The notes below the pieces were generated by a model, which had not been told where the DNA came from, did no database searches, and saw nothing but the letters and a program-made list of their open reading frames with translations. 64,000 nucleotides of DNA from assembly GCF_048403405.1 (NCBI RefSeq), contig NZ_CP183129.1; one strand, 5' to 3'. Below are positions 3,262 to 48,471 of this stretch, piece after piece (position 1 is the stretch's first letter; the number at the start of each line of letters is the position of its first letter). Source of the stretch: Escherichia coli. GTDB lineage: Bacteria; Pseudomonadota; Gammaproteobacteria; Enterobacterales; Enterobacteriaceae. The translations under genes and the position numbers were made by a program.

Positions 3262-3590
3262 CTATTTGTTAGTGAATAAAAGGTTGCCTGTAAAATTACA
3301 AAAACCTTACGCAGCGTCAAGCGGAATCGTGTCAATCATTGCGACAAATCAATCCTGTGCCTAAGCATTACGCGACTGACTCGCCTCACTCTTCCTTTGG
3401 GCTTGAGACCACATGGGGTCGGCGTCCCGAATTTTAAAGGGCAATTACGATAAAAATGTGATTTTCATCACGATTTAGGTGCAGCCATTTCGTCGAGATC
3501 AAGTTTAGGACAAATTTTTGCCAGTTGGTGTTAATGTTTTGTTAGAATCAGTCACGTAATGTGAGCACGATTAAAGTGAGATGTGAGCAA

Positions 3591-41289: not shown

Positions 41290-41441
41290 TGTTGACTCCG
41301 AATGCTGGTTATCTATCCAGTGTAACAGGCGGGGAGCGATTAAAAAAGAGGCGGGTCGATGACAAAGGTTACACCGTGAGACGTGCTACGCCTGTCAGTC
41401 CTATTCGACTCATGCAATATATTGAATTTGCCTAGTTTTGT

Positions 41442-41479
41442 GGGGCGAATAAGGCGTTCACGCCGCATCCGGCGTGAAC
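41442..41479. repeat. REP element between cho and nadE
   Basis: reverse complement reads GCCGGATGCGGCGTGAACGCCTTATTCGCCCC, near-identical to E. coli REP consensus. Confidence 0.7.
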
Positions 41480-41518
41480 AAAGTACTCTTTTTCGCACAA
41501 ACCAATATGTGCAAATTA

Positions 41519-42547: not shown

Positions 42548-42886
42548 ATGAACAAGAATATGGCAGGAATTCTGAGTGCAGCGGCGGTATTAACCATGCT
42601 GGCGGGTTGTACGGCTTATGATCGTACCAAAGACCAGTTTGTACAGCCTGTGGTGAAAGACGTCAAAAAAGGCATGAGCCGGGCGCAGGTTGCACAAATT
42701 GCAGGTAAACCTTCGTCTGAAGTGAGCATGATCCATGCTCGTGGTACTTGCCAGACCTACATCCTGGGTCAACGTGATGGTAAAGCAGAAACCTACTTTG
42801 TCGCGTTAGATGATACCGGGCATGTCATCAACTCCGGTTATCAGACCTGTGCTGAATACGACACTGATCCACAGGCTGCGAAGTAA
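42548..42886 (+). CDS. osmE: osmotically inducible lipoprotein E
   Basis: 112 aa; lipobox LAGC after signal peptide. Confidence 0.85.
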
Positions 42887-42916: not shown

Positions 42917-42945
42917 GAAACCGGCCATTGCGCCGGTTTTTTTTG
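42917..42945 (+). terminator. rho-independent terminator after osmE
   Basis: hairpin AACCGGC-CATTGC-GCCGGTT followed by T8. Confidence 0.8.
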
Positions 42946-42986
42946 GCCTGAGTTCTTAATTATCTTCGCGAATTATTTGCCCGAAA

Positions 42987-43002
42987 TGTGAAGAGGGTCA
43001 TA
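42987..43002. promoter_or_regulatory. CRP-binding-site-like sequence in chb promoter region
   Basis: TGTGA-N6-TCATA (9/10 match to TGTGA-N6-TCACA); adjacent TTCGCGAA palindrome at 42965-42972 resembles a NagC-type operator core. Confidence 0.45.
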
Positions 43003-43184
43003 ACCGCAGGTCAAGGAGAGACAATTTATAAGGTCAAAGAAATACTATTGCTCAGGTCTATACCGTATACTCCTTTCAGCCACAAAAAAAGTCATGTTGG
43101 TTTCGCAAGTTACCCAGAGCATGGAAGCAGGTTAAGGCTTGCGGAGTGTCTGGCTGACAGATAATCGTCGATGAGGGCAGTTTT

Positions 43185-43505
43185 ATGGAAAAGAAACACA
43201 TTTATCTGTTTTGTTCTGCGGGCATGTCTACCTCTTTACTGGTATCAAAAATGCGCGCACAGGCAGAAAAATATGAAGTTCCGGTCATTATTGAAGCATT
43301 TCCGGAAACACTGGCTGGTGAAAAAGGTCAGAATGCCGATGTCGTGTTATTAGGGCCGCAGATTGCTTATATGTTGCCCGAAATCCAGCGTTTGTTACCC
43401 AACAAACCGGTTGAAGTAATTGACTCGCTGCTTTATGGCAAAGTCGATGGTTTAGGCGTGCTTAAGGCTGCGGTTGCAGCGATTAAAAAAGCCGCAGCAA
43501 ATTAA
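43185..43505 (+). CDS. chbB: PTS chitobiose/cellobiose-type EIIB component
   Basis: 106 aa; phosphorylatable Cys in [12 protein letters not shown]. Confidence 0.9.
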
Positions 43506-43589
43506 TTTATTTTAAATTTTCCCGTCAAAGAGTTATTTCATAAATCAATACCGCAATATTTAAATTGCGGTTTTTAAGGGTATTTTTCT

Positions 43590-44948
43590 ATGAGTAATGT
43601 TATTGCATCGCTTGAAAAGGTACTCCTCCCTTTTGCAGTTAAAATAGGAAAGCAGCCACACGTTAATGCAATCAAAAATGGCTTTATTCGCTTAATGCCG
43701 TTAACCCTTGCGGGGGCCATGTTTGTATTAATTAACAACGTTTTTCTAAGCTTTGGGGAGGGGTCGTTTTTTTATTCCTTAGGTATTCGCCTGGATGCCT
43801 CAACCATTGAAACACTTAATGGTCTGAAAGGTATTGGCGGCAACGTATATAACGGAACATTAGGGATAATGTCTTTAATGGCACCGTTCTTTATTGGCAT
43901 GGCGCTGGCAGAAGAGCGTAAAGTCGATGCGCTGGCGGCTGGGTTGTTATCCGTTGCAGCATTTATGACCGTCACCCCATATAGTGTCGGTGAGGCCTAT
44001 GCGGTTGGCGCAAACTGGTTAGGTGGGGCGAATATCATCTCCGGGATTATTATTGGCCTGGTGGTGGCAGAAATGTTTACCTTTATTGTCCGCCGCAATT
44101 GGGTCATTAAATTGCCCGATAGCGTACCTGCTTCAGTATCGCGTTCCTTCTCGGCTTTAATTCCCGGCTTTATTATTCTTTCCGTGATGGGGATTATTGC
44201 CTGGGCGTTGAATACCTGGGGCACCAACTTCCATCAGATCATTATGGATACCATCTCAACCCCACTGGCATCGTTGGGTAGCGTGGTGGGCTGGGCCTAT
44301 GTGATCTTTGTTCCACTGCTCTGGTTCTTCGGTATTCATGGTGCGCTGGCGCTGACCGCACTGGACAACGGCATTATGACGCCTTGGGCGCTGGAAAATA
44401 TCGCGACCTATCAGCAATATGGTTCCGTCGAAGCGGCGCTGGCAGCCGGTAAGACCTTCCATATCTGGGCCAAGCCGATGCTGGACTCCTTTATTTTCCT
44501 CGGTGGCAGTGGTGCGACTTTAGGCCTGATCCTGGCTATCTTTATCGCCTCTCGCCGTGCTGATTATCGTCAGGTGGCAAAACTGGCGCTGCCGTCCGGC
44601 ATCTTCCAGATTAACGAACCGATTCTGTTTGGTCTGCCAATTATCATGAACCCGGTGATGTTTATCCCGTTTGTACTGGTACAACCGATTCTGGCGGCAA
44701 TCACCCTCGCAGCGTACTACATGGGCATTATTCCTCCGGTGACCAATATTGCACCGTGGACCATGCCAACCGGTCTGGGAGCCTTCTTTAATACCAACGG
44801 TAGCGTCGCCGCATTGCTGGTCGCACTCTTCAACCTTGGCATCGCAACGTTAATTTATCTGCCCTTTGTTGTGGTCGCTAACAAAGCACAAAATGCGATT
44901 GATAAAGAAGAGAGCGAAGAAGATATCGCTAACGCCCTGAAATTTTAA
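43590..44948 (+). CDS. chbC: PTS lactose/cellobiose-family EIIC permease
   Basis: 452 aa polytopic membrane protein between IIB and IIA genes. Confidence 0.9.
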
Positions 44949-44998
44949 TCGATGCCGGTACGGGTAATCGTGCCGGTAAGAAAAGAGAGGAACGATGT

Positions 44999-45349
44999 AT
45001 GATGGATCTCGATAACATTCCCGATACGCAAACGGAAGCTGAAGAGCTGGAAGAAGTGGTGATGGGGCTTATCATCAACTCCGGACAAGCGCGCAGCCTG
45101 GCGTATGCGGCACTGAAACAGGCGAAGCAGGGCGATTTTGCCGCAGCAAAAGCCATGATGGATCAGTCACGGATGGCATTGAATGAAGCGCATCTGGTAC
45201 AGACGAAACTGATTGAAGGCGATGCGGGTGAAGGTAAGATGAAAGTGAGTCTGGTGCTGGTCCACGCTCAGGATCATTTAATGACGTCCATGCTTGCGCG
45301 TGAACTGATTACTGAATTAATTGAGCTTCATGAAAAACTGAAGGCATAA
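44999..45349 (+). CDS. chbA: PTS EIIA component (lactose/cellobiose family)
   Basis: 116 aa helical IIA-type ORF. Confidence 0.9.
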
Positions 45350-45356
45350 GGAGTCG

Positions 45357-46199
45357 ATGATGCAGCCAGTGATTAACGCGCCGGAAATTGCTACTGCCCG
45401 AGAACAGCAGTTGTTTAATGGCAAAAACTTCCATGTGTTTATCTATAACAAAACTGAGAGTATCAGCGGACTGCATCAGCACGACTATTATGAATTTACT
45501 CTGGTATTAACCGGGCGTTATTTCCAGGAGATTAACGGTAAGCGCGTGTTACTGGAACGGGGCGATTTTGTTTTTATTCCGTTAGGTTCGCACCATCAAA
45601 GTTTTTATGAGTTTGGTGCCACGCGCATATTGAACGTTGGGATCAGTAAACGCTTTTTTGAGCAGCATTACCTGCCGTTGTTGCCTTATTGCTTTGTAGC
45701 TTCGCAGGTATACCGGACCAATAACGCTTTTCTCACCTATGTGGAAACAGTGATTTCTTCATTGAATTTCCGCGAAACAGGGCTGGAAGAGTTTGTTGAG
45801 ATGGTTACTTTTTATGTCATTAACCGTTTACGTCATTACCGCGAAGAACAGGTGATTGATGATGTACCGCAGTGGCTGAAAAGTACGGTAGAAAAGATGC
45901 ATGATAAAGAGCAGTTTAGTGAATCGGCGCTGGAGAATATGGTGACGTTGTCAGCCAAATCACAGGAATATTTGACGCGAGCGACTCAACGATATTATGG
46001 CAAAACACCAATGCAGATTATTAATGAGATTCGTATTAATTTTGCCAAAAAACAACTGGAAATGACCAACTATTCCGTGACGGATATTGCGTTTGAGGCC
46101 GGTTATAGTAGCCCGAGCTTGTTTATTAAAACGTTTAAAAAATTAACGTCCTTTACGCCTAAGAGCTATCGTAAGAAATTGACTGAATTTAATCAGTAA
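45357..46199 (+). CDS. chbR: AraC-family dual regulator of the chb operon
   Basis: 280 aa; N-terminal cupin-like domain and C-terminal AraC HTH. Confidence 0.85.
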
Positions 46200-46301
46200 G
46201 TCGTTATACCTGACAATTCACATATCTGTCCTGTTGCTGGATTATTTATGTCCGGGGGCAGATATGCCAGATATCAGTATTCTGTACTGAAGGGAGAAAT
46301 T

Positions 46302-47654
46302 ATGAGCCAGAAATTAAAAGTCGTCACTATTGGTGGCGGGAGCAGCTATACCCCGGAGTTACTGGAAGGATTTATTAAGCGTTATCACGAATTGCCGGTC
46401 AGCGAATTATGGCTGGTGGATGTCGAAGGTGGTAAAGCTAAACTGGATATTATTTTTGATCTCTGCCAACGGATGATTGATAACGCTGGCATCCCGATGA
46501 AGCTATATAAAACGCTGGATCGCCGCGAAGCATTGAAAGATGCTGATTTCGTTACTACCCAACTGCGCGTAGGCCAATTACCGGCGCGCGAACTGGATGA
46601 ACGTATTCCATTAAGTCATGGTTATCTTGGTCAGGAAACCAACGGCGCGGGCGGTCTGTTTAAAGGTCTGCGTACCATTCCGGTGATTTTTGACATCGTA
46701 AAAGATGTCGAAGAACTTTGTCCGAATGCATGGGTGATTAACTTCACTAACCCGGCGGGAATGGTCACTGAAGCCGTTTATCGTCATACCGGATTTAAAC
46801 GCTTTATCGGCGTGTGTAATATTCCGATCGGCATGAAGATGTTTATTCGCGATGTTCTGATGCTGAAAGACAGCGATGATTTATCTATCGATCTGTTCGG
46901 CCTCAACCATATGGTGTTCATTAAGGATGTGCTGGTAAATGGCAAATCTCGCTTTGCCGAATTACTTGATGGTGTGGCATCCGGGCAGTTAAAAGCATCT
47001 GGCGTTAAAAATATTTTCGATCTGCCATTTAGCGAAGGCTTAATTCGTTCTCTGAATCTGTTGCCGTGTTCTTATTTGCTTTATTACTTCAAGCAAAAAG
47101 AGATGCTGGCTATTGAAATGGGCGAATACTACAAAGGCGGCGCACGAGCACAGGTAGTACAGAAAGTCGAGAAACAACTTTTTGAGCTGTATAAAAACTC
47201 GGAGTTGAAAGTTAAGCCGAAAGAACTGGAACAGCGCGGTGGGGCTTATTACTCTGATGCAGCGTGCGAAGTGATCAACGCTATCTACAACGACAAGCAA
47301 GCTGAACATTACGTTAATATCCCGCATCATGGGCATATTGATAATATTCCGGCAGACTGGGCGGTAGAAATGACCTGTACGCTGGGGCGCGATGGCGCGA
47401 CGCCACATCCGCGCATTACGCATTTCGATGATAAAGTGATGGGGCTGATTCACACCATTAAAGGCTTCGAGATTGCTGCCAGCAACGCTGCACTTAGCGG
47501 AGAATTTAACGATGTGTTACTGGCGCTAAACCTTAGTCCGTTGGTGCATTCCGATCGCGATGCTGAGCTGCTGGCACGCGAGATGATTCTGGCGCACGAG
47601 AAATGGCTGCCAAATTTTGCCGACTGCATCGCAGAGCTTAAAAAAGCACATTAA
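46302..47654 (+). CDS. chbF: NAD- and Mn-dependent 6-phospho-beta-glucosidase (GH4)
   Basis: 450 aa from MSQKLKVVTIGGGSSYTPEL (GH4 N-terminal NAD-binding motif); AGGGAG SD upstream. Confidence 0.9.
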   Translation: MSQKLKVVTIGGGSSYTPELLEGFIKRYHELPVSELWLVDVEGGKAKLDIIFDLCQRMIDNAGIPMKLYKTLDRREALKDADFVTTQLRVGQLPARELDERIPLSHGYLGQETNGAGGLFKGLRTIPVIFDIVKDVEELCPNAWVINFTNPAGMVTEAVYRHTGFKRFIGVCNIPIGMKMFIRDVLMLKDSDDLSIDLFGLNHMVFIKDVLVNGKSRFAELLDGVASGQLKASGVKNIFDLPFSEGLIRSLNLLPCSYLLYYFKQKEMLAIEMGEYYKGGARAQVVQKVEKQLFELYKNSELKVKPKELEQRGGAYYSDAACEVINAIYNDKQAEHYVNIPHHGHIDNIPADWAVEMTCTLGRDGATPHPRITHFDDKVMGLIHTIKGFEIAASNAALSGEFNDVLLALNLSPLVHSDRDAELLAREMILAHEKWLPNFADCIAELKKAH

Positions 47655-48425
<771 letters not shown>

Positions 48426-48435
48426 GTAAGGTGGT

Positions 48436-48463
48436 AAGGTCACTCCCCAGGGGGCGTGACCTT
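48436..48463. terminator. bidirectional terminator-like hairpin between convergent chbG and katE
   Basis: inverted repeat AAGGTCACTCCCC / GGGGGCGTGACCTT. Confidence 0.5.
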
Positions 48464-48471
48464 ATCCATAT

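Follow-up and report, generated by a model that had tools for sequence, protein, structure and literature searches.

The interval between osmE and chbB in this Escherichia coli DNA is, with a probability that we put at about 0.93, the promoter/operator region of the chbBCARFG operon in its ordinary wild-type form. The operon provides the phosphotransferase system (PTS) and the catabolic functions for N,N'-diacetylchitobiose. We identify the region by its identity with K-12, its match to a published NagC operator, the conservation of its sites at fixed positions, and the intact genes that follow it. A preliminary description of the DNA had placed control by CRP, NagC and ChbR upstream of chbB, and this is borne out: three-regulator control is described in the literature and the sites are conserved. 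The region can be seen as a textbook promoter with three regulators (NagC, ChbR and CAP), it is already known in this common wild-type form, and identifying it matters little beyond correct annotation.

The DNA analysed ("the window", 64,000 nucleotides) is a segment of the E. coli chromosome with the gene order osmE-chbBCARFG-katE, as given by open reading frames and annotation. The 304 bases around the two motifs named in the preliminary description, a CRP-like site and a palindrome, match strains 7/2, APEC37 and CH4797 at 100% identity, and 5412 of the 5426 complete genomes of this species contain the chb control region. Two of the approximately 5415 matches lie on plasmid-labelled records, which could reflect wrongly assigned replicons or a plasmid's capture of chromosomal DNA.

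None of the six chb products is truncated or interrupted by an internal stop, and the operon runs from 43185 to 48425 on the + strand. ChbB, ChbC and ChbA are identical to their K-12 counterparts, ChbR carries A197T, ChbF carries seven substitutions, and ChbG has 252 aa here versus 249 aa in K-12. On the upstream side, OsmE is identical to K-12 OsmE, and its gene is followed by an intrinsic terminator whose stem is a perfect 8-bp inverted repeat (42918-42925 and 42932-42939). This hairpin and its T run are kept in Escherichia, Citrobacter, Salmonella and Enterobacter, and a consensus terminator scan missed them. We infer that the terminator keeps osmE read-through out of the chb promoter. Both motifs lie in the spacer between osmE and chbB (298 bp), and an Rfam scan of the whole window at gathering thresholds gave 0 hits.

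To compare the region across genera, a ChbB scan of species-representative genomes was used, which gave 80 loci (spanning Escherichia, Citrobacter, Salmonella, Enterobacter, Lelliottia, Raoultella, Cedecea, Buttiauxella, Proteus, Aeromonas and others). We aligned 23 upstream regions with MAFFT and also stacked 77 distinct promoters without gaps, anchored on CGTATACT, a sequence which lies upstream of chbB in 76 of the 80 loci. The resulting phylogenetic footprint marks out each element without drawing on footprinting experiments, and its register is fixed across Enterobacterales. Conservation values for each block are given with the coordinates below.

Features of the chb control region and operon, in window coordinates; conservation is in bits per column across the 77 stacked promoters
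Feature	Position	Strand	Bits per column	Basis
osmE CDS (112 aa), upstream neighbour	42548-42886	+		ORF; osmE annotation in K-12 and strain 7/2
osmE intrinsic terminator, stem AAACCGGC / GCCGGTTT then T8 run	42918-42945	+		Inverted repeat and direct reading
NagC distal operator CTTAATTATCTTCGCGAATTATT (23 bp, centre 42966)	42955-42977	.	1.22	Published site, matrix, conservation
Palindrome TTCGCGAA, inside AATTATCTTCGCGAATTATTTG (42958-42979)	42965-42972			Direct reading and coordinate script
Predicted CAP site AAATGTGAAGAGGGTCATAACC (core 42987-43002, centre 42994.5)	42984-43005	.	1.37	Consensus and conservation
CAP TGTGA	42987-42991		1.84	
CAP 6-bp spacer	42992-42997		1.01	
CAP TCATA	42998-43002		1.60	
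Predicted ChbR direct repeat 1, AGGTCAAGGAGAGACAATTTAT	43008-43029	+		Conservation, repeat layout, position
AGGTCAAnGAGAGACAATTT (repeat 1)	43008-43027		1.68	
Predicted ChbR direct repeat 2, AGGTCAAAGAAATACTATTGCT	43031-43052	+		16/22 match to repeat 1
GAAaTAc (core of repeat 2)	43038-43046		1.34	
Invariant CCGTATACT (-10)	43063-43071		1.86	
-10 hexamer TATACT, within CCGTATACT	43066-43071	+		Conservation
Candidate proximal NagC operator CTCCTTTCAGCCACAAAAAAAGT (centre 43081)	43070-43092	.		Matrix register; tentative
chbB leader (~107 nt)	43078-43184	+		Direct reading
Shine-Dalgarno GAGGG	43173-43177			
chbB	43185-43505	+		ORF; annotation of identical strain 7/2
chbC	43590-44948	+		ORF; annotation of identical strain 7/2
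chbA	44999-45349	+		ORF; annotation of identical strain 7/2
chbR	45357-46199	+		ORF; annotation of identical strain 7/2
chbF	46302-47654	+		ORF; annotation of identical strain 7/2
chbG	47667-48425	+		ORF; annotation of identical strain 7/2
Flanks and spacers			0.30-0.54	

Against K-12 MG1655 (NC_000913.3, approximately 1,821,620-1,821,917), the spacer is identical at 293 of 298 positions, equal in length and without indels. The differences between 42880 and 43200 (window/K-12) are 42890 C/A, 42895 C/T, 42910 T/A, 43006 G/A and 43020 G/A. These five SNPs all lie outside the NagC and CAP sites, and the sequence from 43021 to the ATG is identical. The K-12 promoter chbBp therefore has the same distal NagC operator, CAP site, ChbR repeat 2, -10 and leader as the window, whereas three of the SNPs lie upstream of or within the flank of the osmE terminator, one lies at 43006 and one lies in repeat 1 (43020). 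The preliminary description had called for a base-by-base comparison with reference alleles, and when this was run against K-12, which is Cel-, the NagC and CAP sites matched exactly. No IS element or other insertion was found in the spacer, which is collinear with that of K-12.

The window could nevertheless hold a regulatory variant of the chb control region, i.e., a Cel+-type allele that is activated or de-repressed. The SNPs at 43006 and 43020, the latter inside repeat 1, and the A197T change in ChbR are the differences from K-12 that would fit such a variant, but the wider comparison points the other way for each of them. The G of the window at 43020 agrees with the consensus across genera (74 of 77 promoters) and the A of K-12 is derived, so it is the K-12 reference, not the source strain, that is the odd one at this position of the ChbR site, while column 43006 is unconstrained among the 77 promoters. 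The window's haplotype (126 bp, 42950-43075) is present at 99% identity or more in 1929 of 5415 complete genomes, among them those of O157:H7 and E. coli B, and that of K-12 is present at the same threshold in 2346 of the 5415. Across the identity range, six E. coli haplotypes were compared: all have the same NagC operator and CAP site, with SNPs between the sites. ChbR residue 197 takes 13 different forms among 65 orthologues, and with the position this variable we rejected A197T as a gain of function. Asparagine 238, whose change to serine (N238S) is reportedly a Cel+ allele, is kept.

The reported routes to a Cel+ phenotype are of another kind: control by ChbR and NagC is reduced by insertions upstream of the start site, and mutations in nagC and chbR are further routes (PMC4488073; PMC13267602). 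The nagC gene is located elsewhere on the chromosome, outside the window. The earlier statement that cellobiose use is decided by variation at precisely these sites was too strong. Calling the operon normally cryptic is right for cellobiose but wrong for chitobiose, its natural substrate, which induces it normally (PMC4488073). With the NagC and CAP sites unchanged, the spacer length unaltered and no insertion, we consider a regulatory variant very unlikely. Because neither the NagC nor the CAP site is changed, nothing is inserted and ChbR differs only by A197T, the window is best read as carrying the standard allele, which is inducible by chitobiose and predicted to be cellobiose-negative: where phenotype is predicted from sequence, nothing in this allele points to the use of cellobiose.

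Two natural isolates, MB06021 and BS-01, contrast with this allele. In these, an IS1 end (GGTGATGCTGCCAACTTA...) is fused inside the control region, with junctions after the equivalents of 42975, which is inside the distal NagC operator, and of 43002, where the CAP core ends. Both isolates have lost chbBCAR and keep chbF-chbG downstream of the IS1, which is truncated in BS-01.

Returning to the standard allele, both motifs lie where the preliminary description had put them, as confirmed with a coordinate script, and its figure of about 200 bp upstream of chbB is a fair one: the palindrome is centred at 42968.5, 216.5 bp before the ATG at 43185, and the CRP-like core TGTGA-N6-TCATA (TGTGAAGAGGGTCATA) is centred 190.5 bp before it. 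The CRP-like site has a perfect left half (AAATGTGA) and a right half of TCATAACC, matching 9 of 10 core positions and 12 of 16 positions of the extended consensus. Counted over the window, such matches are close to what chance provides. There are 2 copies of TTCGCGAA versus 2.1 expected, 3 occurrences of TGTGA-N6-TCACA with at most one mismatch versus 1.8 expected, and 6 sites that agree with the 22-bp CRP consensus at 12 or more of its 16 specified positions versus 2.4 expected. Function must therefore be argued from context and comparison.

These counts are what one would expect if both motifs were chance matches in an AT-rich spacer, with no regulatory role, but position tells otherwise. 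Measured from the -10, TGTGA keeps its place in 75 of the 77 orthologous promoters and TCA in 74, while the 6-bp spacer between them is variable. CGCGAA (42967-42972), the right part of the palindrome, is in register in 56, and columns neighbouring the motifs are unconstrained. In addition, the NagC operator is identical to a published one and is the best match in the window. Positional conservation thus effectively refutes a chance origin, which we would give hardly any weight. The fixed register is independent evidence that both motifs belong to functional sites and that the array as a whole has a constant geometry.

We therefore regard TGTGA-N6-TCATA as a predicted CAP-type site that is conserved across genera and identical to that of K-12, which upholds the original reading of it as CRP-like. 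Class I CRP sites occupy helical positions at -61.5, -71.5, -82.5 and -92.5, and the centre of this one falls at -82.5 to -84.5, provided that the start site at 43077-43079 predicted below holds. Control of chb by CAP has been reported (PMC13267602), and a full-text literature search did not find the sequence of the CAP site.

The distal NagC operator is the element with the firmest identity. It is the same as the "chbB distal" operator in Table 1 of the FITBAR paper (PMC3098098), which compiled its operators from El Qaidi & Plumbridge 2008 and J. Plumbridge. The preliminary description had asked for agreement with footprinted NagC and CRP sites, and for the distal NagC operator the match to the published list is exact. 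We scored the window with a symmetrised, leave-one-out NagC matrix derived from the nine remaining operators, and the distal operator scored 16.2 bits, ranking first of approximately 64,000 positions. Of 22 other taxa, 19 have a NagC-type site (13-19.7 bits) at the identical offset from the -10 (-110, counted from the G of GTATACT); Proteus has it displaced and Kosakonia lacks it. Given the predicted start site, the operator centre would be near -111 to -113. High-affinity NagC sites typically have C/G at -11/+11 (PMC4288165), and the distal operator fits on one side, with C at -11 (42955) and T at +11 (42977).

The palindrome that first drew attention to this site is inside the operator, as had been proposed, but the 8-bp sequence is not itself the functional unit. 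TTCGCGAA is kept in only 5 of the 77 orthologous promoters, the commonest form at its position being TGCGCGAA (26 of 77). CGCGAA is the right half of the NagC operator, where other NagC sites have TCGAAA or GCGAAT. Because only CGCGAA is constrained and the operator is centred 2.5 bp to the left of the palindrome (42966 versus 42968.5), the palindrome is an incidental overlap of the operator's centre with its right half-site, with the 23-mer as the functional unit. That TTCGCGAA is a separate site for a factor other than NagC is scarcely credible, since its perfect symmetry and its invariance in the six compared E. coli haplotypes are set against a constrained part that belongs to the NagC operator and a dyad that lies elsewhere.

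A second NagC operator may lie at 43070-43092, and we list it as tentative. Its centre is 115 bp from the distal centre and near +2 to +4 relative to the predicted start site. In Escherichia, Citrobacter, Salmonella and Kosakonia, this is the best NagC-matrix position at the register, and in C. amalonaticus, C. sedlakii and Kosakonia it reads ATTTC-N7-GAAAT, scoring 9.8-9.9 bits. In the window and K-12, however, the match is weak, at approximately 0 bits. At 43078-43092, E. coli (the window and K-12) has AGCCA-CAAAAAAA, and an additional base is present in E. albertii, E. whittamii and the cryptic clades (AGCCACCAAAAAAA or AGCCACAAAAAAAA); the shorter E. coli form brings the matrix score down from 1-5 bits to approximately 0. 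Another matrix hit, at 43020-43042 (7.4 bits, rank 32), is the second-best locally, and we rejected it because it overlaps the ChbR repeats and its flanks are unconstrained.

Between the CAP site and the -10 are two direct repeats, 23 bp apart, the second of which overlies the -35 position. Repeat 1 is the most conserved regulatory block of the region, and AGGTCAAnGAGAGACAATT within it is nearly invariant as far as Proteus and Aeromonas. Position and repeat structure, and what Plumbridge & Pellegrini 2004 reportedly found, lead us to assign the repeats at 43008-43052 to ChbR, so they should be read as predicted ChbR sites. There is no usable -35 hexamer (only TACTAT at 17-bp spacing), and a sigma-70 consensus scan found no promoter match on the + strand, both of which fit a promoter that depends on an activator, although the empty scan does not count in favour of one. 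The only hit of that scan, on the - strand at 43001-42972, is within shuffle expectation and was discarded. From the -10, we infer a start site near 43077-43079.

The leader that would follow from this start site is better conserved than one might assume from the neighbouring gene. Its part from 43093 to 43184 is 95-99% identical within Escherichia and approximately 80% in Citrobacter and Salmonella, versus third-codon identities in chbB of 79-95% and 66-74%, respectively; in other genera it is unalignable. Folding of the leader gave an MFE z-score of -0.39, i.e., no significant stability. RNAalifold proposes a hairpin at approximately 43109-43159 that has no more than two compensatory pairs (covariation term -0.71), which does not establish a structure. 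It is conceivable, but we think improbable, that 43093-43184 holds a cis-regulatory element of its own (this hairpin, or a site for a protein or sRNA) besides the known transcription-factor sites. Separately, and at similarly low probability, the two common E. coli haplotypes could differ quantitatively in chitobiose induction, the rare derived A of K-12 at 43020 being in the most conserved ChbR block. The leader was also considered as a source of a distant, araO2-like ChbR half-site, and none was found: the downstream look-alike GGTTAAGG is not conserved, and GCAGGTTAAGG (43127-43137), as a half-site for araO2-like looping, is lost even in E. albertii and E. whittamii and is absent from other genera.

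Several observations concern other parts of the window. In the chbB-chbC spacer (43506-43589) there is CCCGTCAAAGAG (core 43521-43532), which we take to be the exact pairing site of the sRNA ChiX, followed by a hairpin-forming inverted repeat, ACCGCAATTTAAATATTGCGGT, at 43550-43571. The chbB-chbC spacer of the chb mRNA reportedly serves as a ChiX decoy (PMC4098024). At the far end of the operon (48000-48471, covering the 3' half of chbG and the chbG-katE spacer), the 3' half of chbG diverges from K-12 by approximately 17%, versus at most 1.6% across osmE-chbR, and the length difference in ChbG is a 3-aa indel. The chbG-katE spacer is 46 bp here versus 257 bp in K-12, and the extra K-12 DNA resembles a repeat at 41385-41483 of the window (83% identity). 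The pattern suggests a recombinant or old allele, with a REP-type insertion in K-12 in addition. The window's best match to the CRP consensus (14/16) is AAATGTGATTTTCATCACGATT at 3454-3475, in the msrB-gapA intergenic region as mapped via strain 7/2, and its second-best NagC-matrix hit is GCTTATTCAAAAAATGAAATAAG at 58366-58388 (13.9-14.4 bits).

According to secondary sources, including PMC13267602, NagC and ChbR both repress the operon without chitobiose, and induction needs both signals and CAP. Mapped onto the window from 5' to 3', the array would consist of the osmE terminator, a high-affinity NagC operator, the CAP site and two 22-bp ChbR repeats that reach the -35, and then the -10 TATACT, a second, weak NagC operator across the start site and a leader of approximately 107 nt. 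Under the K-12 model in the literature, which we follow, when chitobiose is absent, NagC (probably bridging two operators 115 bp apart) and ChbR would repress. When it is present, GlcNAc-6-P would remove NagC, and ChbR with bound inducer would activate from the -35-proximal repeats, with CRP-cAMP bound just upstream of these repeats also required. Outside the distal NagC operator, the regulator given to each block is a prediction from sequence, as are the start site and the phenotype.

This layout resembles that of araBAD, where the I1-I2 direct repeats bound by AraC reach the -35 and a CAP site is immediately upstream. ChbR, an AraC-family dual regulator encoded within the operon, would likewise act on direct repeats at a poor -35 with CAP just upstream. 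The chb promoter differs from araBAD in probably being bracketed by a second, unrelated repressor, NagC, of the ROK family. The NagC operators of nagE-nagBACD and chiP are likewise 23 bp long with AT-rich arms, TT/AA at fixed positions and a CG-containing centre. Looping by NagC is established at nag, and the approximately 11 helical turns between the chb operators suggest that it may occur here too. However, the proximal operator in E. coli chb is very weak compared with those systems, and NagC does not act alone at chb but together with ChbR.
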